Shown: in pieces, positions 207 through 18,502 of the stretch
Position numbering within the stretch: position 1 is the stretch's first letter
How the letters are laid out: every line of letters begins with the position of its first letter
Assembly: GCA_037439545.1 (NCBI GenBank)
Contig: JBBIVV010000007.1
Location: 51,530 to 70,036 of the forward strand
Length of the DNA stretch: 18,507 nt
Source of the DNA: a bacterium
GTDB lineage: Bacteria > JAMCPX01
Direction: 5' to 3'
Notes under the pieces: model-generated
Database searches by the model: none
What the model was told of the DNA's origin: nothing
Seen by the model: the letters and a program-made list of their open reading frames with translations, nothing else
Made by a program: the position numbers and the translations under genes

Positions 207-1439
207 ATGATTTCGAAGAAAGTGCTCGTCATGATCCTTGCCGGCGGGGAAGGCAAAAGATTGCATCCTCTTACCCAGGACAGGGCAAAGCCTGCTGTCC
301 CGTTCGGGGGCAGGTACAGGATTATCGATTTCGCCCTGAGCAATTTCATCAACTCAGGTTTTTATAAAATAAAGGTCTTGACGCAGTATAAATCAGAGTC
401 GCTCAACTCGCACATAGCAAGGGCATGGCACCTCTCTCCTTCGATAGGGCATTCCATTGATCTTGTTCCTGCTCAGATGCGCATAGGTAAAGACTGGTAC
501 AAGGGCACGGCGGATGCGGTTTATCAGAACATAAATCTCATCCACGACGAGAAACCGGACATCGTATGCATCTTTGGCGGGGACCATATCTATAAAATGG
601 ATGTCAGACAGATGATAGATTTTCATACAAAAAAGAATGCACAGATCACCGTGGAAACTGTTCCGTTCCCTTTAAAAGAAGCCAGCTCTTACGGCATAAT
701 AGAGATTGACAGGGACTACAATATAACGGGGTTCAAGGAGAAGCCGCAGCATCCGAAGCCGATGCCGAACAAGGCGGACATGGCTCTCTGTTCCATGGGT
801 AATTATGTTTTCAATACAGATGTGCTTTTGAAATTGCTTGCGGATGACGCAAAAAAAGAATCGAGCCATGATTTTGGCAGGGATCTCATTCCGTCCGCCG
901 TAAAGGCTTACCTTGTTAAGGCTTATGATTTTTCAAAAAACATAATTCCTGGAGAGGCAAAAGGATCAGCAGGATACTGGAGGGATGTCGGCGAAATAGA
1001 CAGCTACTGGCAGGCAAATATGGACCTCGTATCGGTTACCCCGAGACTGAATCTCTATAATTTCGAATGGCCTATAAGAACATTCTATCCCCCCTACCCT
1101 CCTGCAAAGTTCGTGTTTGCAGATGAAGAGACTAAAAGGATCGGTATAGCCACGGACTCTATGGTTGCCGAAGGCTCAATTATAAGCGGAGGCCAGATAA
1201 ACAGGACCGTTCTTTTCCCGGGCGTGAGAATAAATTCGTTTTCCACAGTAGAAGACTCGGTACTATTCGAAAGGGTTGACGTCGGCAGATATGCACGGGT
1301 CAGAAGGGCCATCATAGACAAGGACGTAAAGATCATGCCGAACGCAGCAATCGGATATGATCCTGATAAAGATAAAAAAAGATTCACTGTTTCCGAAAAC
1401 GGCATTCTCGTCATACCGAAAGGGACAGTCGTAAACTGA
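207..1439 (+). CDS. glgC: Glucose-1-phosphate adenylyltransferase (ADP-glucose pyrophosphorylase)
   Basis: Motifs LAGGEGKRLHPLT..RAKPAVPFGGRYRIIDF, WYKGTADAVYQN, GDHIYKMD, FKEKP and YWRDVG, plus a C-terminal hexapeptide beta-helix; 410 aa. Confidence 0.97.
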   Translation: MISKKVLVMILAGGEGKRLHPLTQDRAKPAVPFGGRYRIIDFALSNFINSGFYKIKVLTQYKSESLNSHIARAWHLSPSIGHSIDLVPAQMRIGKDWYKGTADAVYQNINLIHDEKPDIVCIFGGDHIYKMDVRQMIDFHTKKNAQITVETVPFPLKEASSYGIIEIDRDYNITGFKEKPQHPKPMPNKADMALCSMGNYVFNTDVLLKLLADDAKKESSHDFGRDLIPSAVKAYLVKAYDFSKNIIPGEAKGSAGYWRDVGEIDSYWQANMDLVSVTPRLNLYNFEWPIRTFYPPYPPAKFVFADEETKRIGIATDSMVAEGSIISGGQINRTVLFPGVRINSFSTVEDSVLFERVDVGRYARVRRAIIDKDVKIMPNAAIGYDPDKDKKRFTVSENGILVIPKGTVVN

Positions 1440-1440
1440 C

Positions 1441-3612
1441 ATGCCGGAATTTTACCTCTCATTCCTGTGGCACATGCACCAGCCGAGGTACAAAGACCCG
1501 TTTACTGAAAAATACACCCTGCCGTGGGTAAGGCTCCATGCAGTCAAGGCATACTACGACATGCCTTCTGTATTGAAAAATTATCCCGGCATAAAGGTCA
1601 ACATAAACCTCGTACCTTCGCTTGTCGAACAATGGGCGGATTATGCATCCGGGAATGCCGTCGATGTGTTCTACGAATACTCCCTAAAGCCTGCAGCAGA
1701 ACTGACCGGTGACGATAAGGCTTTCATGCTGAAGTATTTTTTCATGGGCAACTGGGAAACGATGATAAAGCCATATCACCGGTACTTCGAGCTTTTATTG
1801 AAACGCGGTAAAACAGTAAACGATGCCGATATAGAAAATGTGATGGGCACATTCAACAAACAGGATTATCTCGATCTTCAGGTATGGTTCAATCTTTCAT
1901 GGTTCGGCTTCACCGCACTCGCCGAATACACGGAACTTGGGAGGTTAAAAGAAAAAGAAAGAGATTTTACGGAACAGGACAAAAAATTCGTACTCGATAC
2001 GCAGTCCGGCATCATAAAGAAGCTGCTTCCCCTGTACAGGGAATTGAGCAAAAGCGGGCAGATAGAGATAACGACAAGTCCGTTCTATCATACAATCCTG
2101 CCGCTGCTCTATGACTCTGACACCGCGCGCAGGTCCATGCCTCATTCCGTCCTGCCGAAAAGGGTGGGATTTCCCGAAGACGCACTTGCACAGTTAAAAC
2201 TCGGCAGGCAGTTTATAATGGATCATCTCGGTGTTGCACCGAAGGGTCTCTGGCCGTCCGAGGGTTCCGTGTCACCTGAAATCATCCCTCTTGCTAAAGA
2301 GGCCGGGTTCGAATGGATGGTAACCGATGAAGAAATCCTGTTCGCATCCATAAACAAGCAGCGTTCCGGAGAGCTCCTGTATAAGCCCTACAACGCAAGC
2401 TACAGGGGCAGCAGTATCAACATACTTTTCAGGGACAAGGGCATTTCAAATTTTATAAGCTTCGATTGCGCCAGGTATGCGTTCAGGGAAGAGGCTGTGG
2501 AAGAGTTGAAAAGACAGGTTTTCGGCGCCAAAGATTATCTTTCGGATAAAAACATGGACGGCATTGCCGTGATAGCACTTGATGGAGAGAACCCATGGGA
2601 ATATTTTACCTACAGCGGCAAAAGGTTCCTCAACAATCTATATGATGCACTGAGCAAAAGCAAGGAGGTAAAAACAACGACCATATCATCTTATCTCGAG
2701 TCACATAAACCTGCGGACACGATAGAGAACCTGTACACGGGTTCATGGATCAATAAGCGTTTCGATATATGGATCGGTCAGGAGGAAAAGAACCTTGCAT
2801 GGGACTATCTCGGTTCGACAAGAGAGTATCTTAAAGAAAACAGCAAAGGGCTTTCCCATGAACAACTCAGCAATGCGCTGAAATACATCTATATCGCAGA
2901 GGGAAGCGATTGGTTCTGGTGGTATGGCGATACCTTTTATACGGTCAATGAAGAAGAATTCGACAGGTTATTCAGAAAGAACCTGAAAAAAGTCATAGAG
3001 CTTATAAAAAAGCCCATGCTCGATTTCCTCCATACTCCGGTCATAGCACTATCGGAAGCCCAAACCCATTCGCAGCCTCTGGATTTCATCACGCCCGTGC
3101 TTGACGGCGTGCCGACGGATTATTATGAATGGGAAGGAGGCGTCCTGTGCTACAGTACAAACAGTACTCACCATGCCGAAACCTTCGTGCACAAGATATA
3201 CTATGGTTTTGATCTGAATAATCTCTACCTGCGGATCGATCACAATATAGATAAGATCAGGAGCGAGAAATACAACATATATTTTGCAATAAACATCTTT
3301 GATCACAGCTTTGAATACCGGATTATCATACCCATTAAACACATCATCGATTCAAAACCGTATTATGAGCTCCATCATTCGAAGAACCAGATAACCTTCA
3401 ACTTCGTAAAGGTGAGCGATTCGATCGCAATAAAAAAGATCATCGAGTTGAAGGTCCCGTTTGCCGATATAGGCGGAACACCGGACATAAAACTCAACAT
3501 GATTATGAGTGCGAGGGACGGAGATATTGAACTGGAGAAGTACCCTTCAAAGGGCATTATCAGCTTTACCGTCCCTGATCGTGACTATACGAATAAAATG
3601 TGGAGCGTGTAA
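1441..3612 (+). CDS. Glycoside hydrolase family 57, amylopullulanase-like, with C-terminal beta-sandwich domain
   Basis: GH57 conserved regions WHMHQP, LPWVRLH, GLWPSEG (nucleophile Glu), ALDGENPWE (acid/base Asp) and AEGSDWFWWYG. No signal peptide. Starts 1 nt after the glgC stop. Confidence 0.9.
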   Translation: MPEFYLSFLWHMHQPRYKDPFTEKYTLPWVRLHAVKAYYDMPSVLKNYPGIKVNINLVPSLVEQWADYASGNAVDVFYEYSLKPAAELTGDDKAFMLKYFFMGNWETMIKPYHRYFELLLKRGKTVNDADIENVMGTFNKQDYLDLQVWFNLSWFGFTALAEYTELGRLKEKERDFTEQDKKFVLDTQSGIIKKLLPLYRELSKSGQIEITTSPFYHTILPLLYDSDTARRSMPHSVLPKRVGFPEDALAQLKLGRQFIMDHLGVAPKGLWPSEGSVSPEIIPLAKEAGFEWMVTDEEILFASINKQRSGELLYKPYNASYRGSSINILFRDKGISNFISFDCARYAFREEAVEELKRQVFGAKDYLSDKNMDGIAVIALDGENPWEYFTYSGKRFLNNLYDALSKSKEVKTTTISSYLESHKPADTIENLYTGSWINKRFDIWIGQEEKNLAWDYLGSTREYLKENSKGLSHEQLSNALKYIYIAEGSDWFWWYGDTFYTVNEEEFDRLFRKNLKKVIELIKKPMLDFLHTPVIALSEAQTHSQPLDFITPVLDGVPTDYYEWEGGVLCYSTNSTHHAETFVHKIYYGFDLNNLYLRIDHNIDKIRSEKYNIYFAINIFDHSFEYRIIIPIKHIIDSKPYYELHHSKNQITFNFVKVSDSIAIKKIIELKVPFADIGGTPDIKLNMIMSARDGDIELEKYPSKGIISFTVPDRDYTNKMWSV

Positions 3613-5735
3613 TGGACAAGCTGAATTTTCATTTTACTGTCCACTGCCATCAGCCTGTGGGCAACTTCGAGGGCGTATTCAGGGAAGCCTATGAAAAGAG
3701 TTACAAGCCTTTCATCAAAACTATTCTCAGGCATCCTGCCATAAAGTTCGGACTGCACCTGTCAGGCCCCGTATGGGATTGGATAGAAGAACATGAACCT
3801 GCATTTATAGCGGACATGGAAAAGCTCGTGGACAGGGGCCAGGTTGAATTGGTATCCGGCGGTTATTATGAGCCTATACTCGAGATACTGACCGGGCATG
3901 ATGCGACAGGACAGATTGAGATGATGAACAGCTTCATCAGGACAAGATTCAAGCAGAACCCAAAAGGTATATGGCTCACAGAAAGGGTATGGGATCCGTC
4001 GCTGCCGCTCCTGCTTTCGAAGCTCGGGATCAAATACACGACCGTCGACGACACACATTTCTACTATGCAGGACTTGATGAAAAGGACATACGCGGTTAC
4101 TTCATAACAGAGAGGGCGGGCAATCCGCTGAATATCTTCCCCATACAGAAGAAATTGAGATACGCGATACCGTTCAAAGAACCCGGACAGGTGATCGACA
4201 TCTTGAAATATTACAAGGATGCGGCAAACTTCGATTCCGTTACTTATGCAGATGACGGCGAAAAATTCGGTCTCTGGCCCGGTACCTATGACTGGGTGTT
4301 TAAAAACGGATGGCTCGAGCGTTTCTTCACGGAGCTTGAAAAGCATACCGGCTGGCTCAACATAACGACCCAGGGCGAATACCTGTCGTCACACGAGCCG
4401 GCAGGGAGAATCTACATACCTTCAGCCTCTTACGAGGAACTGCTCGAATGGGCGCTGCCGGTTGACATTATCGAGAGATTCAAAAACTTCGAGGCACTCC
4501 TGGATACTTCGGGGTTCAAGGAATACTACAAACCGTTTGTCAGGGGAGGGTTCTGGGACAATTTCCTTGTCAAATACCCGGAGAGCAACTGGATGCACAA
4601 GAGAATGCTGTACGTAAGCACCATGCTTTTAAATACGGAAAACAGGATAGGCATACCGCTCGATGACGCCAGGCATGAACTCTTCAAATCCCAGTCCAAC
4701 TGTACTTACTGGCACGGGTTGTTCGGCGGTGTTTACCTGAACTATTTAAGGCATGCCGTGTATGAACACCTCCTGAAAGCCGAGGAGATTATAGACGCAC
4801 ACAAACCCCAGTCCCACGGCGTATCCTGTGCTTCACAGGATATCGACCTCGACGGCATGCCGGAGATCGTCCTGAAGAATAAACACTTGTCGTTATACAT
4901 AGCCCCGTCAAAGGGAGGAGCGATACTCGAAATAGACCTCAGGGACCACCACTTCAACATTACCAATGTCATGACAAGACGCAGGGAAGCATATCATAAG
5001 CTTATCATGGAGAATCATGCATCCCCTGCTTCTGTAAATACCCCTGTTACGATACACGACATAGTAAATGCAAAAGAAGCGGGACTGGATCAAAAACTGA
5101 TTTATGACTGGCATCCGAGATATAGTTTTGTGGAGCATTTTCTTCCATCCAATGTGCTGGAACTGGACAGAATGTATAGGAATCAATACATAGATCTCGG
5201 TGATTTTACACTCGAACACCACACGCTCGTGAGGTATGAAGGCAATACCGTACTGCTTTCAAGGGATGGACACATTTTGTATAACAGCAGCAGGCTATCA
5301 TTGAGAATGGAGAAGAATTACCGGTTATTGGAAAAAAGAATCGAGACCGGCTACCGGCTCACCAATACATCGAAACAGCCTTTCAGCATGGCAATGCTCG
5401 TGGAGCTGAACCTGAGCCTGCTCGGTACCGATGGTCAGCGTTCCCTGGTGATCCATAGTTCTGATAAACACGAAACAAAAGGCATGTCTGATTTTATAAC
5501 CAGCGGCACGATTGACAGCTTTGAACTCATCGATACATGGCAGAAACTCGGGATAAAGGTGATAACGCCGTCGATAGCGTCATTCTTTGCATACCCTGTA
5601 GAAACGGTATCGGCATCGGAAAACGGTTTTGAGAGGACATATCAGGGAACGTGCTTTATGCTTGTTTACGGGCTTAATCTTGCACCGGGAGAAAGTAAAG
5701 GTATTTCCATACCAGTGGATTTTTACAATATATAA
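3612..5735 (+). CDS. GH57 alpha-amylase / 4-alpha-glucanotransferase (DUF1925/DUF1926-type C-terminal domains)
   Basis: HCHQPVGNF, GGYYEPIL, GIWLTERVW (Glu), DDGEKFGLWP (Asp), YWHGLFGGVYL and SENGFERTYQG. Start placed at ATG 3612 because of the TAATG stop/start overlap. Confidence 0.9.
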   Translation: MDKLNFHFTVHCHQPVGNFEGVFREAYEKSYKPFIKTILRHPAIKFGLHLSGPVWDWIEEHEPAFIADMEKLVDRGQVELVSGGYYEPILEILTGHDATGQIEMMNSFIRTRFKQNPKGIWLTERVWDPSLPLLLSKLGIKYTTVDDTHFYYAGLDEKDIRGYFITERAGNPLNIFPIQKKLRYAIPFKEPGQVIDILKYYKDAANFDSVTYADDGEKFGLWPGTYDWVFKNGWLERFFTELEKHTGWLNITTQGEYLSSHEPAGRIYIPSASYEELLEWALPVDIIERFKNFEALLDTSGFKEYYKPFVRGGFWDNFLVKYPESNWMHKRMLYVSTMLLNTENRIGIPLDDARHELFKSQSNCTYWHGLFGGVYLNYLRHAVYEHLLKAEEIIDAHKPQSHGVSCASQDIDLDGMPEIVLKNKHLSLYIAPSKGGAILEIDLRDHHFNITNVMTRRREAYHKLIMENHASPASVNTPVTIHDIVNAKEAGLDQKLIYDWHPRYSFVEHFLPSNVLELDRMYRNQYIDLGDFTLEHHTLVRYEGNTVLLSRDGHILYNSSRLSLRMEKNYRLLEKRIETGYRLTNTSKQPFSMAMLVELNLSLLGTDGQRSLVIHSSDKHETKGMSDFITSGTIDSFELIDTWQKLGIKVITPSIASFFAYPVETVSASENGFERTYQGTCFMLVYGLNLAPGESKGISIPVDFYNI

Positions 5736-5749
5736 ATATATGATAGTAT
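5722..5749 (+). promoter_or_regulatory. Possible internal promoter for galT-glgA-crp (TTTACA-16nt-TAGTAT with TGn extension)
   Basis: TTTACA 5722-5727, TG 5741-5742 and TAGTAT 5744-5749 lie in the only real intergenic gap of the operon. The SD GAGGAG is at 5756-5761. The region is AT-rich, so a chance match is possible. Confidence 0.3.
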
Positions 5750-5767
5750 GAAACAGAGGAGAATCGA

Positions 5768-6766
5768 ATGTCTGAACTAAGGAAAGACCCGATTTTAGGG
5801 AGATGGGTCATTATCTCTACCGAGAGATCGAAAAGGCCGTCCGATTTCAACAATAAGCATACAGAAAAGAATGAAAACGGCTTTTGTCCCTTCGATTACG
5901 GGAACGAAGACAAAACACCGCATGAAATCCTTGCAATAAGAAAAGACGGCAGTCATTCTGACAGGCCCGGGTGGACATTACGGGTGGTCCCGAACAAGTT
6001 TCCCGCGCTGCATATAGAGGGCGATCTGAACAGAGAGGGCGATGGTATGTACGATAAGATGGGCGGCATAGGCGCTCATGAGGTGATAATTGAAACACAG
6101 GAACATGACAGAATAATGTCTTCATTCTCAGTCCCCATGATGAACGACATTCTGTGGACGTACAGGGAAAGGATAAAGGATCTGAAAAGAGACAAAAGGT
6201 TCAAATATGTCCTTATCTTCAAAAATCACGGAGAAGCAGCAGGCGCATCTCTCGAGCATACACATTCACAGTTGATCGCACTGCCCATTATTCCCATAGC
6301 TGTAGAAGAAGAACTCCACGGCTCCAAGGACTATTATGAGTATAAAGAGCGATGCATATTCTGCGATATGATTCGGCAGGAAATAGCAGAAAAGGAAAGA
6401 CTGGTCACACAGAATACGGATTTTATCGCATTCGAGCCTTATGCATCGAGATTCCCATTCGAGACATGGGTACTGCCAAGAAGACATTTCTCCCATTATG
6501 AAGGCGCATCGGACAGCATGCTGGAAAGCTTATCCACAATCTTTCTTGAGGTCATAGGTAAAATTGACAAAGCTCTGGATCACCCGCCCTTTAATTTCAT
6601 ACTTCATACCGCACCTTTTTCCACGGATCAACTCGATCATTATCATTGGCACTTTGAAATAATCCCTATTCTCACGAAAGTGGCCGGATTTGAATGGGGG
6701 ACCGGATTCTTCATAAACCCGACGTCTCCCGAGGATGCAGCCTCCTATCTCAGGGAGATATCATGA
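5768..6766 (+). CDS. galT: GalT-family (HIT superfamily) hexose-1-phosphate nucleotidyltransferase
   Basis: ELRKDP..GRWVII, RSKRP, CPFD.GNE, RVVPNKFPAL, GAHEVIIET, FKNHG..AGASLEHTHSQ (HxHxQ), CIFC and AGFEWGTG; strong SD GAGGAG. Confidence 0.88.
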   Translation: MSELRKDPILGRWVIISTERSKRPSDFNNKHTEKNENGFCPFDYGNEDKTPHEILAIRKDGSHSDRPGWTLRVVPNKFPALHIEGDLNREGDGMYDKMGGIGAHEVIIETQEHDRIMSSFSVPMMNDILWTYRERIKDLKRDKRFKYVLIFKNHGEAAGASLEHTHSQLIALPIIPIAVEEELHGSKDYYEYKERCIFCDMIRQEIAEKERLVTQNTDFIAFEPYASRFPFETWVLPRRHFSHYEGASDSMLESLSTIFLEVIGKIDKALDHPPFNFILHTAPFSTDQLDHYHWHFEIIPILTKVAGFEWGTGFFINPTSPEDAASYLREIS

Positions 6767-8235
6767 TCATCGTCCATGCAGGCTCCGAGGTCGTTCCGTT
6801 TTCAAAGACAGGCGGACTTGCGGACGTACTCGGCGCACTGCCGCTTTCATTGGCTAAGAAGGGTCATGATGTTCTTATCATATCTCCGCTTTACCGATCC
6901 GTCATAGAAAAATTCAAACCGGAAAAACTGGCCCTGCCGCTGGAAATAAAGTTAAGCGATGAGACTGTGCATGCCGATATTTATTCAATCAGGATCAATG
7001 AACGTGCGACGGCATATTTCATTGCAAATGATTCATTATTTTTGAGAGACGGGCTTTATGTCGATAAAAACGGCATCGATTATGAAGACAATTCAAAAAG
7101 ATTTCTATTCTTTTCAAGGGCTGTCCTCGAGCTTATCAAAAATTTAAACATCAAACCCGGTGTCATACACAGCCATGACTGGCAGGCGGGATTCGTCCCC
7201 GTTTACATGAAAACGCTGTACAAGGATTATTTTAACGCCACGGCGTCCGTATTCACGATACATAATATAGGCTATCAGGGCACCTTCCGGCACCTTGACA
7301 TGCAATTAACAGGACTCGGATGGGAGTATTTCACGAGTGATTACCTTGAGTTTTACGGTAAGATAAGCTTTCTCAAGGCCGGTATCGTTTTTTCCGATGC
7401 AGTCACGACCGTCAGTCCGACTTACAGCAAGGAAATACTGGGACATGAGTTTGGTTATGGAATGGACGGCATATTGAAAACGAGGCAGTCCGATCTCTTC
7501 GGTATTCTGAACGGCGTCGATTATGAACAGTGGAACCCGGAACATGACAGGTTTATTCCACACCCTTATGGTATGGATACTCTGGAGTTGAAACAGGACA
7601 ATAAAACGACGCTTATCAGGATGTTCAATCTCGACAATAGCAATGCCCCGGTTATAGGCATGATAACAAGGCTTGCCCGGCAAAAAGGCATTGATTTTGT
7701 CATCGAGGCAATAGCCAGAATCATGGCAATGGGCTTTAAGCTTGTTCTGCTCGGCAGCGGTGATAAGCCCTACGAAAATAAAATCAAAGACATTGCGGAC
7801 AGGTATAAGGGAAGAGTCAGTGTAAAGATTGGTTTTGACAACAGTCTTGCACACCTCATAGAAGCAGGGAGCGATATGTTCCTCATGCCGTCCGTTTATG
7901 AGCCGTGCGGATTGAACCAGATGTACAGCCTCAAATACGGGACAGTACCTGTGGTGAGAGCGACAGGCGGTCTTAACGATACGATTATAGAGTATGAGCC
8001 GTCCCCGGAAAACGGCAATGGTTTTAAGTTCAAAGATCAGAGTGCGGATGCAATGCTCCCGGCATTAAAAGCAGCTATGGATGTTTACCAGGACAAACAG
8101 AGATGGCAGAGGCTCATAAAAGCATGCATGTCGTATGATTTTTCATGGGACAAGAGTGCTGCCGACTACGAACTTTTGTACAAAGCTTATACGATAAAAT
8201 CCTATTTACATGGATACAGTAGCCCACTTACTTAA
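6763..8235 (+). CDS. glgA: Glycogen/starch synthase, ADP-glucose type (GT5)
   Basis: SEVVPFSKTGGLADV (KTGG), HSHDWQAG, FTIHNIGYQG and MPSVYEPCGLNQMYS. Start ATG 6763 forms an ATGA overlap with the galT stop and has GGAGA upstream. Confidence 0.96.
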   Translation: MIIVHAGSEVVPFSKTGGLADVLGALPLSLAKKGHDVLIISPLYRSVIEKFKPEKLALPLEIKLSDETVHADIYSIRINERATAYFIANDSLFLRDGLYVDKNGIDYEDNSKRFLFFSRAVLELIKNLNIKPGVIHSHDWQAGFVPVYMKTLYKDYFNATASVFTIHNIGYQGTFRHLDMQLTGLGWEYFTSDYLEFYGKISFLKAGIVFSDAVTTVSPTYSKEILGHEFGYGMDGILKTRQSDLFGILNGVDYEQWNPEHDRFIPHPYGMDTLELKQDNKTTLIRMFNLDNSNAPVIGMITRLARQKGIDFVIEAIARIMAMGFKLVLLGSGDKPYENKIKDIADRYKGRVSVKIGFDNSLAHLIEAGSDMFLMPSVYEPCGLNQMYSLKYGTVPVVRATGGLNDTIIEYEPSPENGNGFKFKDQSADAMLPALKAAMDVYQDKQRWQRLIKACMSYDFSWDKSAADYELLYKAYTIKSYLHGYSSPLT

Positions 8236-8875
8236 AAAATTTCCCTTCTTTTACACTGTTTCCGATGTGCTGCTTGAAAAGGTCGGCAAAATTGGCATCG
8301 AGAAATCTTACACGAAGGATGAGTGCATATTCGATGAAGGGGAAAAGCCGGAGTCCATGGGACTGATCATAGAGGGAAGGATAAAGGTCGTTAAGCATTC
8401 ACCGGAAGGCAAGGACGTTATCGTACGCATTATTGATAAAGGCCAGATATTCGGTGAAGTGGCTGTTTTCGACAACAGGCCCTACCCCGCTTCTGCTGTT
8501 GCAATGGTCGATACGAGGGCATTTGTACTCGAGAGGCATAAACTGACAGACCTGCTCCACAGTGAGCCGCAAATAGCTCTTGACATTATCTCCGACCTTG
8601 GCAGGAAGTTGAGAGACCTGCTCGATACGGTCAAAAACATAGCTACCGAGCACGTCGACAAGCGGGTCGTATTCACGTTGCTGAAGATGTATGAGGCAAG
8701 CGGTAATCCCGTCCTGAAGATCAAGAGGCAGGACATCGCTGAGATGTGCGGTACAACCGTTGAAACGACCATACGGATCACGAGGGAACTCGAGAAGAAC
8801 GGCTTCATATCCACGGAACGGGGGGAAATAAAGCTCGCGGTCATCAGTGCCCTCAAAGAATACCTGAACAAATAA
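8210..8875 (+). CDS. Crp/Fnr family transcriptional regulator (Dnr/HcpR-like features)
   Basis: cNMP-binding beta-roll (IFDEGEKP...IFGEVAVFD..PYPASAVA) and C-terminal HTH RQDIAEMCGTTVETTIR. Overlaps glgA by 26 nt. Confidence 0.92.
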   Translation: MDTVAHLLKKFPFFYTVSDVLLEKVGKIGIEKSYTKDECIFDEGEKPESMGLIIEGRIKVVKHSPEGKDVIVRIIDKGQIFGEVAVFDNRPYPASAVAMVDTRAFVLERHKLTDLLHSEPQIALDIISDLGRKLRDLLDTVKNIATEHVDKRVVFTLLKMYEASGNPVLKIKRQDIAEMCGTTVETTIRITRELEKNGFISTERGEIKLAVISALKEYLNK

Positions 8876-9782: not shown

Positions 9783-10475
9783 ATGGCGAACAAGCAGGTA
9801 ATCATTATTGAAGACGACAAAGATATAGCAAACCTCGTAGCGCACTATCTGAGCAAAGAAGGCTTTATGCCGATTATAGCCCATGACGGTGAAGAGGGGC
9901 TCCGGCAATTAGAGTTAAAATCTCCTGCACTGATCCTACTTGATCTTATGCTGCCGAAGAAAAGCGGCTACGAAGTCATGCAGCAATTGAAGGGACAAAA
10001 CACCACTTCAGACATACCAATTATAATTCTCACGGCAAAATCGGATGAAATCGACAGGGTGCTTGGCCTTGAGCTCGGTGCAGACGACTATGTAACGAAG
10101 CCGTTCAGCCCGAGTGAGTTGATTGCGAGGATCAAAGCGATCATGCGTCGAACCATCCGGGAAAAGCGTCTGGAAAAAACAAATAAATATATATTTGATA
10201 AACTTGAGATAGATGATCTAAAGCATGAGGTAAAATATAATGATCGGATTATTACACTTACTTCAAAGGAATATAGTCTTTTGAAACACTTCATGAAACA
10301 TAGGGGCATTGTGTTGTCAAGAGACATGCTCCTGCAGGAGATATGGGGCTATAACTATTTTGGGATAACCAGAACGGTCGACGTGCACGTCTCAAGGTTG
10401 AAAAAGAAACTGCCATACCTGAGTAAACAAATTAAGAACATTAAAGATATAGGATATAAGTTCAGCGATGAATAA
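9783..10475 (+). CDS. OmpR/PhoB-family response regulator (PhoB/PhoP/WalR-like)
   Basis: Receiver domain IIEDD, LILLDLMLP (phospho-Asp), LTAK and DDYVTKPF; winged helix LTSKEYSLL...LSRDMLLQEIWGYNYFGITRTVDVHVSRLKKKL. Confidence 0.93.
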   Translation: MANKQVIIIEDDKDIANLVAHYLSKEGFMPIIAHDGEEGLRQLELKSPALILLDLMLPKKSGYEVMQQLKGQNTTSDIPIIILTAKSDEIDRVLGLELGADDYVTKPFSPSELIARIKAIMRRTIREKRLEKTNKYIFDKLEIDDLKHEVKYNDRIITLTSKEYSLLKHFMKHRGIVLSRDMLLQEIWGYNYFGITRTVDVHVSRLKKKLPYLSKQIKNIKDIGYKFSDE

Positions 10476-10580: not shown

Positions 10581-10608
10581 GGCGGCAAGCATGAAATGGA
10601 GGAATAAA

Positions 10609-11079
10609 ATGAAGAAACCGAGTATCAAGATTATCAAAAAAAATTTTCTGCAAACGGCATTTACATTAAGCCTGATTCCCCTGTTGTTGATAAGTATAGC
10701 AGTGTTCTCAGGCTGCGGCAGCAGCAGCAATAGCAGCAGTGTAAACAGTGCTACAGCGTCCGACACCTATGGCATCTGGGGGACGATTAGCGGCGCCGTA
10801 GGCCGGAATGTTTCAGTTACATTGAGTGGCACAGGCATCAACACGAGTACAACAACAGTTATTTTCCCAGAAAGCTTGCACCCGCAGGGCATTTCCGTTA
10901 ACAGCGGTTTTTACAATTTTTACGGGCTCTCCAATGGGTCATACACTGTTACCCCGTCACTTGCAGGTTATACATTCACCCCGGTCAGCAGGTCGGTCAT
11001 TATCAATAGTGCTACTATACCAGACATGGATTTTACGTCGACCTCCATAACCTCATCCACACATGAATCAATATTTTAA
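10609..11079 (+). CDS. Lipoprotein with carboxypeptidase-regulatory-like (prealbumin-like) beta-sandwich domain
   Basis: SD GGAGGA before ATG 10609; basic N-terminus, hydrophobic helix and lipobox FSG-C (Cys codon 10714-10716); Ser-rich linker; ISG...VSVTLSG...GFYNFYGLSNGSYTVTPSLAGYTFTP pattern. Confidence 0.75.
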   Translation: MKKPSIKIIKKNFLQTAFTLSLIPLLLISIAVFSGCGSSSNSSSVNSATASDTYGIWGTISGAVGRNVSVTLSGTGINTSTTTVIFPESLHPQGISVNSGFYNFYGLSNGSYTVTPSLAGYTFTPVSRSVIINSATIPDMDFTSTSITSSTHESIF

Positions 11080-11101
11080 GAAGATAACAGGAGAGATAAA
11101 A

Positions 11102-11560
11102 ATGAAAAGTTTAAAAACAAATCCCTACCGCATCTCGCCGGGAAGTGTTTTAACTCTGTTATTGTGCTCATTTTTCATCTTAAATACAGTAACTCCTTCC
11201 AAGGCAGTCGATGTTACTTTGCATTGTTCTAAACAGCCACGCAGTTCAGTCCCGACATGTGACGGACAGCCACCGGTACATGCAACTGCTCCGGATACTG
11301 TATACTTAAGTGAACAGGCAACTTCACTTTGGGCTTATTACAAATGCACGGTGACAATAGTGAATAGTTCAAACACAACTGCTGATAGTATAATAATAGA
11401 CCACCATATACTTGGGCATGGAGAAGTGCTTCAGCTTAACGATTACGAGATTCCGGGCTCATTCTTTGTTGGCTGCGAGGGACCAACCTGTGACATAGGC
11501 GGCGCAACTTATAAGATTGTAGTATCAGACTGCTATCAAATGAATCGTAAATCTCAATGA
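11102..11560 (+). CDS. Hypothetical secreted protein, six Cys in mature part
   Basis: SD AGGAGA before ATG 11102; signal-peptide-like N-terminus ending S-K-A; beta-rich mature region with no family that I recognise. Confidence 0.65.
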   Translation: MKSLKTNPYRISPGSVLTLLLCSFFILNTVTPSKAVDVTLHCSKQPRSSVPTCDGQPPVHATAPDTVYLSEQATSLWAYYKCTVTIVNSSNTTADSIIIDHHILGHGEVLQLNDYEIPGSFFVGCEGPTCDIGGATYKIVVSDCYQMNRKSQ

Positions 11561-11601: not shown

Positions 11602-12711
11602 TTATAATATAACCCCTTGAACGGCTAAAAAGGCCTTAACAACCTCGGGATCGAACTGACTGCCCGAACACCTTGTCAATTCTTTTATTATCTCCTCTAC
11701 TGGCATACCTTTCCTGTATGGCCTGTCTGAACTCATTGCATCAACCGCATCTGCAACGGATAAAATCCTTGCAAGCAAAGGTATCTCTTCTCGCTTCAGC
11801 CCTTCCGGATATCCTGAACCGTCAAAGAATTCATGGTGATGCTTCACGCCAGGAATTATGTCCTTCAATTGTTTTATAGGTAAAAGTATTTCCACCCCTT
11901 TCATCGGATGCTGTCTGACCAGGGCACGTTCTTCATCTGTAAGTTTCTCTTTTTTATCGAGGACATCCGTATAGGTGCCAATCTTACCTATGTCATGCAG
12001 CAAAGACGCTACTTCAATGTCCCTTAGAACTTTTTCATTAAGACCCATGTGCCTACCTATAGCAAATGCATACTTTGAGACACCATCTGAGTGACCGGCT
12101 GTCCAGCGGGATCTTGCATCTATGGCAATTGAAAGTGATTTAATAGTTCCAAGGGATAATTCTTCAAGGTCAGCTATCAGCTTTGCGTTGGCTAAAGCCA
12201 CAGCGATTTGGGATGCAAGTTTTTCTGCTACTAATAAATTTTCTTGTGTAAAAGCGATGGCCCTTCTTGATCCAAAATTCAAGGTGCCTATAATCTCATT
12301 TCCTACGTTAAGAGGGATTCTCATAATTGACAGAATCCCATCCTGTAAAAGCTTTTTTTCGAACGGAAGAATATCTTTTATCTCACCGAGATTCCGTATG
12401 TATTGCGGTCTACCTGTTTTTACTACGTCCGTATTGCTCGTGTCCTGAAAATGGATAAACGTCCCTACGGATGACGGGAGTGTACCGAAACTCGCAATTC
12501 GAGTGATACCTTTTTTGTTATTGTCCACGAGCATAATGGCCTCTACCTCGCATTGCAGCAGCTTACCTGCCATATTCCTTATCGTGTTCAGTATGTTCTC
12601 GGAGGTCATGTTAGACAGGATGTTCCGGTCTATTTCATACATCGTATTTATTACCTCTTGGGCTTTTTTCCCCTCTGCTATTTCTTTTTTAATCTGTTTT
12701 GAACGCTTCAT
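11602..12711 (-). CDS. GAF + HD-GYP cyclic-di-nucleotide phosphodiesterase
   Basis: GAF domain (IPLNVGNEIIGTLNFGS...AFT...LASQIAVALANAKL), then WTAGHS, LLHDIGKIG, HHHEFFDGSGYPEGL and ADAVDAMSSDRPYR, all intact. Confidence 0.92.
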   Translation of the reverse strand: MKRSKQIKKEIAEGKKAQEVINTMYEIDRNILSNMTSENILNTIRNMAGKLLQCEVEAIMLVDNNKKGITRIASFGTLPSSVGTFIHFQDTSNTDVVKTGRPQYIRNLGEIKDILPFEKKLLQDGILSIMRIPLNVGNEIIGTLNFGSRRAIAFTQENLLVAEKLASQIAVALANAKLIADLEELSLGTIKSLSIAIDARSRWTAGHSDGVSKYAFAIGRHMGLNEKVLRDIEVASLLHDIGKIGTYTDVLDKKEKLTDEERALVRQHPMKGVEILLPIKQLKDIIPGVKHHHEFFDGSGYPEGLKREEIPLLARILSVADAVDAMSSDRPYRKGMPVEEIIKELTRCSGSQFDPEVVKAFLAVQGVIL

Positions 12712-12722
12712 AAAGTCTCAAT

Positions 12723-13883
12723 TTAAAACCCTATCTGCAAGTTAAGCGCAATCGAGCTATCGTTGTATGTTGTCTTGTTTCTCGACAGATCGAATCCCTT
12801 TGCGGAATACAGATTGTAATCAAACGCTATGATCGTATCCTTTGCTATGTCGTAGCTCACACCGAATAAGAGCCAGTTATTCTCCTTTGATGTCAGTTTG
12901 CTTAAAAGGCTTGTTTCATACACAACGCCTAGATCTGTATCAGGCTCTATTTTACCACTCACGGGCTTGTAGGCATCATTGCTGTTCGGCTTCGTGTATA
13001 GATATCTTGCAAATGCCCGTAGTTTTTCTTCACCGGGTATATGAATGAAGCCCCACAGACTGTAGCCATGACCATTATCAAACTTTGTAAAATCGAGATT
13101 TTCCGGCATCACATGATCGTCTGCCCAGAAGTACTCACCTGCAACCCTGACCAGACTGTCGGTGTACATAAGCATTGCTATTGCGCGTTTCGGGTTATAA
13201 TCCGGGATCCCGTTGTGCATGCTCTCGTCCCATCCGAATACAGACAATATTATGGGGTTTACATTCAAGGTAATTCTTGCAGAACCCGCGTATCCCCTGC
13301 CGTCCTGCGTCGCCTGATAGCCTTCTCCGTTTGAACCCATGATGTAGTAATCTATAAGCTTGTCTGCTATGGTCCCAAATAATGCAACACCATAGTCTGC
13401 AGAGGTCTGGATTCCTTCGTAATCAGCAGGCGTCATTGCAAGAAACCTATAGGGCCAGTAGTGTTCTTCCCATGGTATCCACGGGGTGTCCATAATCCCC
13501 ATCCTTAAATTCACTTCCGCAAACGGTGAATATGTTGCCGAAACATTTTTGACATATATAGTGCCCCTGCCATTGGGGGCTGATGGATCTGAATAAGACT
13601 GGTCAAGGGTCAGCCTGCCCGATAATTCATCTGTTATCTTGTCTATAACCGTAAGATACGCCCTTGAAAGCCATAAGCCGTCCACATTCGAAGTATTGAG
13701 AGACGCCTCAGTCTGTCCGACCTTTGATGTGTCAAAATGGTTGCCTGATGCCTCAATGGCATTAAGGTAACCTGTTGCCGATATGTTCAGGTCATCGTTG
13801 ATCTGATATCCATATGACACTGCACTTATCAATAAAAGACAACCAATTGAGATTGATATAATCTTTTTTGTGTGCTTATACAT
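12723..13883 (-). CDS. Outer-membrane beta-barrel porin, possibly phosphate/polyphosphate-selective (OprO/OprP-like)
   Basis: SD GAGGAG, signal peptide, alternating amphipathic aromatic-rich strands and a C-terminal LNLQIGF BAM-type signal. The substrate is inferred from operon context only. Confidence 0.7.
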   Translation of the reverse strand: MYKHTKKIISISIGCLLLISAVSYGYQINDDLNISATGYLNAIEASGNHFDTSKVGQTEASLNTSNVDGLWLSRAYLTVIDKITDELSGRLTLDQSYSDPSAPNGRGTIYVKNVSATYSPFAEVNLRMGIMDTPWIPWEEHYWPYRFLAMTPADYEGIQTSADYGVALFGTIADKLIDYYIMGSNGEGYQATQDGRGYAGSARITLNVNPIILSVFGWDESMHNGIPDYNPKRAIAMLMYTDSLVRVAGEYFWADDHVMPENLDFTKFDNGHGYSLWGFIHIPGEEKLRAFARYLYTKPNSNDAYKPVSGKIEPDTDLGVVYETSLLSKLTSKENNWLLFGVSYDIAKDTIIAFDYNLYSAKGFDLSRNKTTYNDSSIALNLQIGF

Positions 13884-15437: not shown

Positions 15438-16133
15438 TCACCCGCGTTGTCTGATGAAATTGTCCACTTCCCTGCATATCTCGGTTGATATCAGCTTTAC
15501 CGATCGGTTCCCGTTGACGATACGGAAATTGTATTTTGTGCTGATCAGACTGAACTGAACGTTCATCCTACGCTGGTACCCGATAAAACAATGATACCAT
15601 TCCCGTGAAATGTGAAGATCCATGCCGGATTCCCAATGGCTGAACATTCCGTACTTTGTAAATGTCCTTTCCACCAGCCTCTCCGGCTTGATTTTGAGAA
15701 AAAAAACGATGTCCGGTATAAGTGCAATCCCGTAGAGCGACTGTAACCACTCCGGATTTTCCCCCCTTACGATGTCCCGCGCCATGAGCGTGTATATATA
15801 TCTGTCCGCAACTACTATGAAGCCTGCCTGGAGTGCGGGTATTATCTTGTTCTCAAGCTGGTCTGCATAATCTGTCGCATAAAAAAGACTCATGGTCCTG
15901 GGGCTGATTTCCTTTGTGTCCTTAACCTGTTCCAGTTCCGGACTTATAAGTGCCGAACGTTTCAATCCCACATTCTCCACTGCATGTCCAGCTCGTTCCA
16001 GATGGTCTCGGAGGAGCTCAACCTGAGTAGTACGACCCGAGCAATCCGCTCCTTCCACCACGATCAACATGCCCTTGAGCTGCTCGGGATCAACGCCTGG
16101 AATACCTTCACCGTAGAACCTTTTATTCGGCAT
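15438..16133 (-). CDS. Thymidylate-kinase-like P-loop protein B (variant Walker A GADCSGRT)
   Basis: LIVVEGADCSGRTTQ, VVADRYIYTLMARD, PDIVFFL and WESGMDL; SD GAGGT; 11-nt overlap with the upstream paralog. Confidence 0.85.
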   Translation of the reverse strand: MPNKRFYGEGIPGVDPEQLKGMLIVVEGADCSGRTTQVELLRDHLERAGHAVENVGLKRSALISPELEQVKDTKEISPRTMSLFYATDYADQLENKIIPALQAGFIVVADRYIYTLMARDIVRGENPEWLQSLYGIALIPDIVFFLKIKPERLVERTFTKYGMFSHWESGMDLHISREWYHCFIGYQRRMNVQFSLISTKYNFRIVNGNRSVKLISTEICREVDNFIRQRG

Positions 16134-16830
16134 GATACAACCTCATTGAATTGAATCTGAAATCGCTTAATTTTATTTTTTCTTCTACCTTGCTGCGCAC
16201 ACGGCTTTGCTGCTCTTCTATATCAAGGGCTGCGTCAATTGTTTGAAAATTGTATCTCTCAGTTAATGCCTTATATTTTTCAGAAATCATCTGCTGAAAG
16301 ATCTTGAAAGACACAACCGGGTCAGGGGAGAGGTTCAGGTCCATCCCTGCCTCATGGTACTTAAGGTTTGGCCTGCTTTTGAGTATCCTCTCTACTGCGA
16401 TGCTGACCTCGATATCAAAATAAAACGTTATGTCCGGTACGACCGCAAAGGAATACAATTTCCTTACCCATTCCGGATCACACCCCCTGGTCGTATCTCT
16501 CGCAAATGCCGTATATATATACCTGTCGCAAAGCACGATATAGCCCGCCTGAAGGAGCGGTAGTATTTGTTTCTCGTAGCGGTCGGAGAAATCGATCGCA
16601 TGTATCAACGAGAATGTAAGCGGCGTAAGCAGGAGCTTCTTTTTTCCCCTCTTTATTGCTGACCTCACGACGTCCGCGGAATTCCATTCTGAAAAGAATG
16701 CCTTGTATCCTTCTATCTCAAGCCACCTCTTCAGGAGGTATATCTGGGTCGACTTCCCTGATCCGTCGATACCCTCGACCACGATCAGCCTGCCCGGGAG
16801 CCCTGCATCGGTTTTATGATCCTTTATCAT
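16123..16830 (-). CDS. Thymidylate-kinase-like P-loop protein A (canonical Walker A GIDGSGKS)
   Basis: LIVVEGIDGSGKSTQ, VLCDRYIYTAFARD, PDITFYFD and HEAGMDL; SD AAGGA; 17-nt overlap with the end of ppx. Confidence 0.87.
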   Translation of the reverse strand: MIKDHKTDAGLPGRLIVVEGIDGSGKSTQIYLLKRWLEIEGYKAFFSEWNSADVVRSAIKRGKKKLLLTPLTFSLIHAIDFSDRYEKQILPLLQAGYIVLCDRYIYTAFARDTTRGCDPEWVRKLYSFAVVPDITFYFDIEVSIAVERILKSRPNLKYHEAGMDLNLSPDPVVSFKIFQQMISEKYKALTERYNFQTIDAALDIEEQQSRVRSKVEEKIKLSDFRFNSMRLYHAE

Positions 16831-18394
16831 TTTTATTTCCTTCTTTCCTGTACTCCGTTACCTCGAGCCGATACCCGAATGTCCTGGTGAAGAGTTTCCC
16901 TTTTAAAGGTATTGCAAGCCGTTCGAGTTCGAGTCTTTTATAGTCCGGAATACCGATAATCAGACTGTTCTTGCCAAGATTGATCGACAGGGGCATTTTT
17001 ATCTCAAGGTGCTCCCGATCAAGTGCATCGGCTATCCGCAGGATTGATGCGAGCTTTATGATAATTATTTTTTCTTTTCCAGTCAGTTTGTTGAAACTTT
17101 CGTGTTGCTCCTTTGGGAATGACTTGCGGTGGTATCTGGCAATGTTTGCAATGAGGACAATGTCTCTGTGTGAAAGTCCCATGATGTTCGATTCCGCTAT
17201 GAGGTATTGTGAGTGCTTATGATGGTGCGGTATACCCACGAAATAGCCGATATCGTGCAGGTACGCTGCCAATTCTATCAAAAGACGCTCCCGTTCTCCG
17301 AGCATATGGATATCCTTAAGTGCATCGAATAAGTCCAGACTATACGAGGCAACGTTTGTTGCATGCAGCCAGTTGAATTCATATTTTTCGCTGAGTGCAT
17401 GAACTGCGGAAACAAGCTGTTCACGCTTTTCATCTTTATGCATCTTTTCATCATTCTCTAAGTATTCGATTGCAATGCCGTCTCGTACGCCGACGCCAGG
17501 TGCATAGATACTGTCCACCTTTGCACAACGGGCAAAGCTTTCATATACAATCGCTGCCGGCAAGATGACGTCAGCCCTGTTCGGACGGAGCCGGAGCTTT
17601 TCAATTCTCTCCTGCAGGTTGTACCCTGTCAGTTTTTTAATTACCGTATGCAGCAGGTCGCACCCGATCCGTACTACGCCTTTCTCCCATTCAAGCTTTC
17701 CCCATCCGGTCTGCTCGATAAGCCAGACTATGCTGTCTATATTTCCTCCTGTGGCTATAAAGCGGTCTATCTTCTTCCTGCCAAGGCTGTGCTGCAGCCG
17801 TTTATGGGTAATGCCTACATATTTGTCTGCTATTTCATGGAATTTTTCGTCGTCACCTGCATACGCTTTCAGGTATTCCATCAATCTGACCGCACCAAGC
17901 TTATGGGTGAGGCAAAATTGTATTTTACCATCCTCGATCAGACTCACCTCGACGCTGCCGCCCCCTACTTCAATATGAACGACGTTAAGTGATGCGAGAG
18001 GGATTTTTTTCATGACTGCCTTAATGATGAGTCTTGCCTCCTCGGTCCCATCAATCACATTAACCTTGATCCCTGTTTCTTTCCGCACCATACTTATAAA
18101 TTCAGCTTTATTTTCAGACTCTCTTACCGCACTGGTGGCTACTGCCTCTACTTTTGATATCCGGTAGTCATCGATAATCTGTCTGAATTCCTTCAAAGCC
18201 TTCAGCGCATTAGCAAGCGAAGCTCTCAGTATCTTGCCGGTGTGGAACACATCCTTGCCCAGTCTTACGGGTTCTCTTAGTGTTTTAAATGCGTGGATTT
18301 CTCCATCGTCACTCTTTGTAAAAAGTTGGATACGTAAGGCGTTTGATCCAATATCGATCGCCGCTATCTTCTTATCTTTCATTTGCATAGTCAT
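16814..18394 (-). CDS. ppx: Ppx/GppA family exopolyphosphatase with C-terminal HD domain
   Basis: AAIDIGSNALR, AVATSAVRES, IDGTEEARL, EVGGGSVE, LGAVRL, RADVI and GVRDG; HD part LHDIG, HHKHS, IARYHRK and LRIADALDR. Exact start is ambiguous (18394, 18388 or 18382). Confidence 0.93.
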   Translation of the reverse strand: MTMQMKDKKIAAIDIGSNALRIQLFTKSDDGEIHAFKTLREPVRLGKDVFHTGKILRASLANALKALKEFRQIIDDYRISKVEAVATSAVRESENKAEFISMVRKETGIKVNVIDGTEEARLIIKAVMKKIPLASLNVVHIEVGGGSVEVSLIEDGKIQFCLTHKLGAVRLMEYLKAYAGDDEKFHEIADKYVGITHKRLQHSLGRKKIDRFIATGGNIDSIVWLIEQTGWGKLEWEKGVVRIGCDLLHTVIKKLTGYNLQERIEKLRLRPNRADVILPAAIVYESFARCAKVDSIYAPGVGVRDGIAIEYLENDEKMHKDEKREQLVSAVHALSEKYEFNWLHATNVASYSLDLFDALKDIHMLGERERLLIELAAYLHDIGYFVGIPHHHKHSQYLIAESNIMGLSHRDIVLIANIARYHRKSFPKEQHESFNKLTGKEKIIIIKLASILRIADALDREHLEIKMPLSINLGKNSLIIGIPDYKRLELERLAIPLKGKLFTRTFGYRLEVTEYRKEGNKNDKGS

Positions 18395-18472: not shown

Positions 18473-18502
18473 ATAATAATTATAACCCGCCCTGCCTTTC
18501 AA
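18473..18502 (-). promoter_or_regulatory. Putative sigma70 promoter of the ppx operon
   Basis: On the - strand TTGAAA (18502-18497), an 18-nt spacer, then TATTAT (18478-18473). A perfect TATAAT (18484-18479) lies immediately upstream of that hexamer. Confidence 0.45.

Follow-up and report, generated by a model that had tools for sequence, protein, structure and literature searches.

Two thymidylate kinase-like genes in a bacterial ppx operon are predicted to encode the subunits of a PPK3-type polyphosphate kinase

Introduction

What is the function of two overlapping genes for thymidylate kinase (Tmk)-like proteins that lie between an exopolyphosphatase gene (ppx) and the gene of a CHAD protein? 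This question is raised by an 18,507-nt stretch of contig JBBIVV010000007.1 from a bacterium of the GTDB lineage JAMCPX01 (assembly GCA_037439545.1); the whole stretch is called the window below. Its minus strand carries six tightly packed genes in the order ppx, P0002, P0001, CHAD, porin-like and GAF-HD-GYP (Table 1), where P0002 and P0001 are the two Tmk-like genes and their products. A first-pass annotation, made from the DNA letters of the window, had taken the pair, rather than for a dTMP kinase, for an A/B complex that moves phosphate between polyphosphate (polyP) and nucleotides in the role of ppk1/ppk2, and had tied it to the fold of PPK2 polyphosphate kinases. The general idea appears to be supported by the comparisons reported here and coincides with a published enzyme family, PPK3; the relationship, on the other hand, is with the Tmk superfamily and not specifically with PPK2.

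PPK3 was described in the crenarchaeon Sulfolobus acidocaldarius, whose heteromeric enzyme SaPPK3 is the product of two ‘thymidylate kinase’ genes that adjoin ppx (Hofmann et al., J Biol Chem 2026, PMC12995831; preprint 10.1101/2024.08.28.610084). The catalytic subunit, Saci_2019 (cPPK3), forms polyP from ATP as well as ATP from polyP and ADP in a reversible reaction, and Saci_2020 (rPPK3) is inactive alone but activates about ten-fold, with a maximum at a ratio of 1:1, and drives the formation of a tetramer (alpha2beta2) (PMC12995831). Phosphorylation of dTMP was seen with neither subunit, and no dTDP was made (PMC12995831). The authors assigned PPK3 to the Tmk superfamily and set it apart from PPK2; moreover, many bacterial Tmk paralogs of the same clade have ppx, CHAD, SixA or pst genes as neighbours, and most carriers of PPK3 are without PPK1 and PPK2 (PMC12995831). 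Below, subunits related to cPPK3 and rPPK3 are called c-type and r-type, or c and r. We put at roughly 85% the probability that the pair in the window is a bacterial PPK3, with P0002 as the predicted catalytic and P0001 as the predicted partner subunit, in an operon for polyP turnover.

Results

P0002 and P0001 are paralogs, with 35% identity over 210 residues and no gap (BLASTP, E = 8e-47), and their genes overlap by 11 nt, so that the overlapping paralogs which the first-pass annotation had described between ppx and the CHAD gene are indeed there. Both proteins match the Pfam family PF02223 (Thymidylate_kin) with 88.3 and 68.5 bits, respectively, and in the NCBIfam family TIGR00041, whose cut-off is 83.25 bits, P0002 lies above (94.7 bits) and P0001 below it (77.1 bits). 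No match to PPK2 (PF03976) was obtained for either protein at E ≤ 0.01. The motifs that had been noticed as private to the pair were found as written, namely DRYIYTAFARDTTRGCDPEW and EAGMDL in P0002 and DRYIYTLMARDIVRGENPEW and ESGMDL in P0001. The Walker A motif of P0002 reads GIDGSGKST and is accompanied by EWNS, GKKK and DRY motifs, and that of P0001 reads GADCSGRTT, with Arg in place of Lys, while DRY is kept. When the two proteins were aligned with the Tmk of their own genome, to which P0002 is 30% and P0001 26% identical, the ‘TREPGGT’ and ‘VAYQGYGRG’ segments of that Tmk turned out to be replaced in both, which agrees with the earlier remark that TREPG and SxxAYQG-type segments are missing.

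Among solved structures, the best match of both proteins is ST1543 (STK_15430) of Sulfurisphaera tokodaii (PDB 2plr, 4nzy, 4rzx and 5h70), which was deposited as ‘dTMP kinase’ and is treated as a homolog of cPPK3 by Hofmann et al. (PMC12995831). P0002 matches the chain 2plr/5h70 with E = 7.5e-64 (218.5 bits), compared with 2.5e-13 for the best canonical Tmk, and P0001 matches the same chain with E = 5.6e-34. The predicted structure of P0001 has a predicted local distance difference test score (pLDDT) of 90.7, and its best fold match is again ST1543, with template modelling (TM) scores of 0.80/0.87, compared with about 0.73 for canonical Tmks.

The phylogeny was inferred with a careful IQ-TREE run on 66 rows (25 c-type, 25 r-type and 16 canonical Tmks, including that of the genome itself), which were hand-picked from the matches and comprise the named homologs, a few from long contigs and all paired genome loci. 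The 16 canonical Tmks were split from the 50 c and r rows with support of 100/100, and a quick tree agrees; the phylogenetic check suggested by the first-pass annotation thus sets the pair apart from canonical Tmk. P0001 falls in the r clade (99/97) and P0002 in the c clade (95/83), where it belongs to a bacterial sub-clade (95/95), and P0001 is likewise part of a bacterial sub-clade of r. A layout of Sulfolobaceae, Nitrososphaerales and bacteria is common to the c and r halves of the tree. Moreover, the 16 paired loci of other genomes, six of them Sulfolobaceae-type, agree without exception: P0002 is the better-scoring counterpart of the first gene and P0001 that of the second. Within the Thermoproteota, 14 of 201 sampled genomes carry the pair, eight of which are Nitrososphaerales-like (grouped with genome G041) and six Sulfolobaceae-type, with c subunits that score about 350 bits to 5h70 (two of the six were checked). 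A single-protein locus search of the genome contigs returned two PPK3 loci and five canonical Tmk loci. Clade, presence of an r paralog as neighbour, motifs of the c and r types and genomic association all point in one direction, and P0002 and P0001 are probably members of PPK3.

The two subunits differ in their basic residues. Conserved basic columns number 18 in the c-type (39 aligned sequences) and 8 in the r-type, and R56, R61, K64, R84, R123, R153, K157 and R212 of P0002 correspond to S, Q, D, Q, Q, Y, S and C in P0001. The polyP cleft is stated to be conserved in cPPK3 but not in rPPK3 (PMC12995831), and the basic residues lost from P0001 fit this statement. As judged by sequence, P0002 appears to keep the residues that make the proposed polyP cleft basic, and P0001 appears to be without a basic cleft of this kind.

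For the active site of the r subunit, the published account is different from what was found in P0001. The arginine of the DRX motif ‘is replaced in rPPK3s’, which is given as the reason for their inactivity (PMC12995831), and according to the legend of Fig. S14 this statement rests on Saci_2020 and STK_15420. In our alignment, DGY was present in five Sulfolobaceae-type r sequences, and DRY was kept in P0001, two other bacterial r sequences and four Nitrososphaerales-like r sequences. Among the matches listed, all 238 homologs of P0001 and P0002 keep the DRX arginine, and the Walker A position is Arg in 119/119 homologs of P0001 versus Lys in 119/119 homologs of P0002. Metagenomic loci (described below) gave a similar picture, with Walker A Arg in 74 of 76 r segments (the other two have no match to the motif), Lys in 78 of 82 c segments and DRY in 65 of the 76 r segments. 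The five Sulfolobaceae-type r sequences have Lys in three cases and Arg in two. P0001 is a member of the r clade but, as judged from these motifs, not of its Sulfolobaceae type, and the Walker A Lys-to-Arg change is its putative conserved lesion. This change in r subunits is not mentioned in the main text of the PPK3 paper, in which the word ‘lysine’ is confined to a reference and ‘Walker’ to mentions of Walker B, although the figures might show it (PMC12995831).

These residues bear on the alternative that survives best, in which both subunits are enzymes and the r subunit, rather than being a passive scaffold, performs a second reaction (for instance polyP- or ATP-dependent phosphorylation of another nucleotide) or senses nucleotide. 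DRY is kept not only in P0001 but in 119/119 close r homologs among the matches listed and in most metagenomic r segments, the Walker A Arg is invariant and not randomly degraded, which suggests selection on the nucleotide site, and the confident model of P0001 has a complete Tmk fold. However, a Lys-to-Arg exchange in the Walker A motif of P-loop proteins usually abolishes phosphoryl transfer, and P0001 is without eight basic residues that are conserved in the c-type. In two fused relatives, P0135 and P0149, the Walker A position of the second domain is V or T, so that catalysis there seems dispensable, and Saci_2020 was inactive (PMC12995831). We consider a second enzyme improbable and return to P0001 as a non-catalytic partner. 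Since P0001 keeps DRY, it is the Walker A exchange alone that argues for its inactivity.

With the odds against it, r subunits outside the Sulfolobaceae might be nucleotide-binding regulatory subunits that sense ATP/ADP and set the direction of the holoenzyme, and not dead scaffolds. Such sensing could follow from a P-loop that is intact apart from the invariable Arg in place of Lys, together with the retained arginine of DRX. If this were true, the published reason for the inactivity of r would apply to the Sulfolobaceae branch only. Because r subunits outside the Sulfolobaceae have a different conserved change in the active site, they may have a role other than that of the characterised subunit.

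The arrangement of the genes suggests that c and r work together. In all 74 metagenomic loci that hold both genes, c precedes r; the remaining 6 of the 80 loci were cut by a contig end or mis-scored by the script. Moreover, c and r distances co-vary (r = 0.94 for 17 pairs, with 0/999 Mantel permutations as high), which shows co-inheritance and not binding. Natural fusions of c with r were found in P0130 (460 aa, from an Alicyclobacillaceae bacterium) and in P0294, whose N-terminal half is c-type with GK and whose C-terminal half is r-type with GR. From gene order, co-variation and fusions we infer that P0002 and P0001 probably form a heteromer. Neither an r-type subunit nor a heteromer was among the structures returned by sequence searches of the PDB, and the ST1543 structure is that of a c-type subunit alone, unlike the two-subunit pair in the window.

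The gene pair is continuous with its neighbours: ppx and the P0002 gene overlap by 17 nt, the CHAD gene begins 4 nt past the P0001 stop codon, and purine-rich stretches precede the start codons of both Tmk-like genes. The product of ppx matches PF02541 (152.3 bits), PF21447 (99.4 bits) and PF01966 (35.4 bits), and scores 208.3 bits to the exopolyphosphatase family TIGR03706, under its cut-off of 307.

Homologs of the pair are numerous: two word-index searches gave at least 8000 candidates each, and a search of cluster representatives gave 349 with E ≤ 1e-30 to P0002. Among the matches listed, every source name was ‘dTMP kinase’ or ‘thymidylate kinase’, so the suspicion that homologs are auto-annotated as dTMP kinase is borne out for every named homolog. 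Geobacter, Geotalea, Desulfuromonadales, Anaerolineae, Verrucomicrobiota and Methylomirabilota are among the sources of the named homologs. In the 31,788 rows examined of Data S1 in the PPK3 paper, which covers 47,545 genomes, there was no entry for Geobacter, Geotalea or Pedosphaera (PMC12995831). Among close kin the pair is patchy, and in the family of the host it was seen in 1 of 11 other genomes.

A ppx homolog was present in 15 of the 17 genome loci examined; for instance, the layout is ppx-c-r-CHAD-SixA-like in genome G027 and ppx-c-r in G028. For metagenomes, the 80 best loci were surveyed with our own crude calls of open reading frames (ORFs) and small local profiles, due to which some genes may be missed, and 48 of the 80 have at least one polyP-themed neighbour. 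When only the 23 loci with at least 2 kb on both sides are counted, 13 are polyP-themed (Ppx in 11, CHAD in 8, SixA-like in 8 and PPK2 in 2). A Pfam search of 139 unlabelled neighbours found PPK2 in three loci, and trpE, M50 peptidase and his genes in others. Domain fusions of c-type-like proteins are all phosphate-themed, the partners being Ppx domain III, inorganic pyrophosphatase (InPase), NUDIX and SPX.

The genome in question (2.32 Mb in 88 contigs, 98.28% complete) carries a third, canonical tmk on contig C54, directly upstream of holB (DNA polymerase III delta'), whose product scores about 182 bits to PF02223 and to TIGR00041 (182.4); a separate housekeeping tmk, which had been named as something to look for, thus exists. 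PPK1 and PPK2 (PF02503, PF13090, PF03976) gave no match in the whole 98.28%-complete genome, so that their absence from the window, stated earlier, extends to the rest of the assembly. With no match to either kinase, the pair is left as the sole recognisable candidate for making polyP or for regenerating ATP from it. Outside the operon there is a second, short Ppx/GppA homolog (G000:C6:58384-59163, locus L136; PF02541 181.5 bits, in a 298-aa frame).

Discussion

If the pair is a PPK3, P0002 would catalyse the reversible reaction ATP + polyP(n) <-> ADP + polyP(n+1), and its intact P-loop, DRX arginine and conserved basic residues would suit the binding of polyP. By analogy with rPPK3, P0001 would assemble with P0002 (alpha2beta2 in Sulfolobus) and raise its activity while being non-catalytic itself. 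Both would be co-translated with Ppx, and the CHAD/HD, porin-like and GAF-HD-GYP proteins would complete a polyP turnover operon. Enzyme activity, direction in vivo and the roles of the downstream genes are what we infer from these likenesses. The pair suggests how an uncultured bacterium without PPK1 and PPK2 could still make or use polyphosphate, and would be one more case in which a ‘dTMP kinase’ annotation hides a polyphosphate kinase.

The likeness to SaPPK3 concerns the locus, the genome and the proteins. In both cases adjacent Tmk-derived paralogs follow directly after ppx in the order c then r, with a CHAD gene in the operon; both genomes have, besides the pair, a canonical tmk, and neither PPK1 nor PPK2; and in both, the P-loop and DRX of the c subunit (here P0002) are intact and its basic cleft is conserved, and the r subunit is without the basic residues. 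The differences are that the host here is a bacterium and not a crenarchaeon, that P0001 keeps the DRX arginine and has Arg for the Walker A Lys, unlike r of the Sulfolobaceae (DGY), and that, unlike in the SaPPK3 operon, there is no SixA gene (neither a SixA nor a pst gene was found in the window), the CHAD protein is fused to Ppx domain III/HD, and porin-like and GAF-HD-GYP genes follow. Moreover, activity was measured for SaPPK3, and the version here is known from sequence alone.

Two other families are similar in part. Like PPK2 (PF03976), the pair would belong to a P-loop kinase family that moves phosphate between polyP and nucleotides, and the two-domain class II PPK2, with an active unit and an inactive, P-loop-degenerate N-terminal domain, offers an analogy (PMC12995831, discussion); unlike PPK2, neither P0001 nor P0002 matches PF03976. 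With the canonical Tmk on C54, the pair shares the fold, PF02223, the P-loop, DRX and the layout of the lid, but it is separated in its own clade (100/100), is only 26–30% identical and has the segments of the dTMP site replaced.

Several observations weigh against assigning the pair to PPK3 as an enzyme for polyP synthesis. According to the abstract of the PPK3 paper, SaPPK3 strongly favours the formation of ATP from polyP (PMC12995831), and with such a bias net synthesis of polyP in vivo is uncertain here. A literature search found no experiments on any bacterial PPK3, and among its matches only the preprint and the paper of Hofmann et al. concern the family by title; moreover, identity to Sulfolobaceae-type proteins is moderate (46–53% for c and 31–34% for r). 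The published reason for an inactive r, loss of the DRX arginine, fails for P0001. In the metagenomic survey, 10 of the 23 well-flanked loci are without a Ppx, CHAD, SixA-like or PPK2 gene; the linkage to phosphate genes foreseen by the first-pass annotation was seen with ppx, CHAD and SixA genes, with a ppx homolog in 15/17 genome loci and at least one polyP-themed neighbour in 48/80 metagenomic loci, but is incomplete. Among 41 genomes (the host's own and 40 relatives), four carry the pair, and PPK1 and PPK2 are both missing in 4/4 carriers, but also in 30 of the 37 non-carriers. Because this absence is common in relatives, it is by itself no pointer to replacement by the pair. The anti-correlation with ppk1/ppk2 that had been expected thus holds for the four carriers and goes no further, since PPK2 genes (PF03976, 234–251 bits) directly adjoin the pair in three loci (L087 636-1616, L106 4920-5894 and L118 8347-9162), which means that the two kinase families co-occur in some organisms as separate components. 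A strict anti-correlation was rejected as a rule, given that non-carriers are mostly without both and that PPK2 lies beside the pair in metagenomic loci.

The incomplete linkage also leads to another reading, in which the pair derives from Tmk but phosphorylates another substrate, either a nucleotide or a small phosphometabolite, and its adjacency to ppx is incidental or reflects shared phosphate regulation. The ten well-flanked pairs without a polyP-themed neighbour would suit it, as would several loci in which the pair comes after trpE or between housekeeping genes, and assays exist for the Sulfolobus proteins only. On the other hand, P0002 shares one clade with the assayed type and keeps all c-type motifs and basic residues, polyP genes lie beside the pair in most of the metagenomic and nearly all of the genome loci counted above, and the fusions of c-type relatives are without exception phosphate-themed, all of which makes a different substrate very unlikely. 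That the two proteins are ordinary, redundant dTMP kinases, as databases annotate all named homologs among the matches listed and as the PF02223 matches of both and the TIGR00041 score of P0002 would allow, can be practically discounted, given the canonical tmk at 182 bits beside holB, the TIGR00041 score of P0001 under the cut-off, the 100/100 split, the replaced TREPGG and AYQG segments and the Sulfolobus orthologs that made no dTDP (PMC12995831).

With PPK3 as the preferred assignment, it should be said what the locus adds. The family, its heteromeric nature and the bacterial ppx/CHAD neighbourhood are already published, and bacterial members are already predicted, so this one locus alters the picture little. 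In three respects the findings modestly extend the paper, as far as its main text tells: bacterial and Nitrososphaerales r subunits keep the DRX arginine, with Walker A Lys-to-Arg throughout the samples; only about half of the well-flanked metagenomic pairs lie beside polyP genes; and PPK2 can adjoin PPK3. These points bear on the regulation of bacterial PPK3 and on how safely function can be transferred by annotation.

Other features of the operon and the window

The positions of the operon genes and of a promoter-like site are given in Table 1. The right end of the window is the end of the contig, 113 nt upstream of ppx, and a scan for promoters and terminators gave 19 sites versus 15.2 expected, which is not above chance.

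Table 1. Genes of the predicted polyP operon and a promoter-like site upstream of it (positions in the window)
Feature	Description	Position	Strand	Basis
Promoter-like site	TTGAAA, 18 nt, TATTAT; upstream of ppx	18473..18502	-	10/12 consensus positions; weak evidence
ppx	Ppx/GppA exopolyphosphatase carrying domain III (HD) at its C terminus; opens the operon	16814..18394	-	Pfam
P0002	cPPK3-type subunit, predicted catalytic polyphosphate kinase subunit, 235 aa	16123..16830	-	Homology, tree, motifs
P0001	rPPK3-type subunit, predicted non-catalytic/regulatory partner, 231 aa	15438..16133	-	Homology, tree, motifs
P0004	CHAD protein fused to Ppx domain III/HD, 503 aa	13922..15433	-	Pfam
P0005	Outer-membrane porin-like protein	12723..13883	-	Model fold, homolog naming
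P0006	GAF + HD-GYP protein; last gene on the strand	11602..12711	-	Pfam; operon place from spacing

P0004 matches PF05235 (CHAD, 81.1 bits) over residues 24–243, PF21447 (66.5 bits) over residues 316–461 and PF01966 (HD, 29.2 bits). A fusion to Ppx domain III/HD of this kind was seen in 0 of the 17 CHAD ORFs that adjoin PPK3 pairs in the 80 metagenomic loci, and the CHAD protein of G027 has 269 aa, compared with 503 aa in P0004.

P0005 has no Pfam match, even at E ≤ 1. In the Atlas, its top match (score 0.99) is to a cluster labelled ‘Phosphate-selective porin O and P’, in which PF07396 is found on 39% of the members, and a homolog with 58% identity carries the NCBI name OprO/OprP family porin. 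The predicted structure (pLDDT 71.4) matches 16-strand porins in general, with TMq values of 0.54–0.64, and OprP (2o4v) reaches only rank 50, with a TMq of 0.64. Because the fold search gives only a general 16-strand porin, an OprO/OprP-type phosphate-selective porin is kept as a lead only. No homolog of P0005 adjoins any of the 80 metagenomic PPK3 pairs.

The gene of P0006 lies 11 nt past the porin-like gene, and it is from this spacing alone that its membership in the operon is deduced. The protein matches PF13487 (HD_5, 127.6 bits), PF13185 (GAF_2, 46.6 bits) and TIGR00277 (HDIG, 32.2 bits), and could be a regulatory phosphodiesterase of cyclic di-GMP. Since the HD-GYP family is multi-copy, with 5–8 matches per genome of the same family, a synteny check of P0006 is no guide to gain or loss of the operon.

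The one other carrier in the family, genome G007 of another genus, has a broken ppx-c-r-CHAD stretch (contig C87, 1214-3100, locus L021) of about 78% DNA identity, with c spread over three frames, r over two, and a CHAD gene without residues 126–465; no porin or HD-GYP gene follows the CHAD gene. This copy is either a decaying operon or the product of assembly errors in a metagenome-assembled genome.

Further c-type-like fusions were seen in P0135, P0149, P0152, P0256, P0172, P0179, P0245 and P0273, whose layouts include c followed by a degenerate second Tmk domain and Ppx domain III/HD, fusions to InPase and fusions to NUDIX. Another seven, P0165, P0181, P0203, P0220, P0230, P0237 and P0257, are long proteins with a c-type-like Tmk domain that is 44–50% identical to P0002 and has Walker A GK and DR[YWH], with no match to the EWNS or GKKK patterns; the long proteins are fused to MFS transporter and APH/DUF2252 domains, and P0165 to SPX. 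P0165 comes from an EukProt record of the protist Ancoracysta twista and may possibly be a eukaryotic relative of PPK3 under SPX control; no paper joining SPX domain, thymidylate kinase and polyphosphate was found.

In two metagenomic loci, a ROK-family kinase gene and then a Ppx gene lie downstream of the PPK3 pair (L067 7455-8417 and L070 7460-8443). Some ROK kinases use polyP as donor.

The remainder of the window carries genes of other kinds. An orphan OmpR-family response regulator (9783-10475, plus strand) points towards the end of the polyP operon, which lies about 1.1 kb away; its best NCBIfam match is PhoB (TIGR02154, 234.9 bits), under the cut-off of 296.2. Two ORFs without a family, at 10591-11079 and 11063-11560, lie between this regulator and the operon. 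A glycogen-type operon occupies 207-8875 on the plus strand, with a glgC-like nucleotidyltransferase, two GH57 proteins, one of which carries amylase/4-alpha-glucanotransferase domains, a GalT-like transferase and a glgA-type starch synthase, and is followed by the gene of a CRP-family regulator. Genes for a carbon store and for a phosphate store thus stand side by side in the window.

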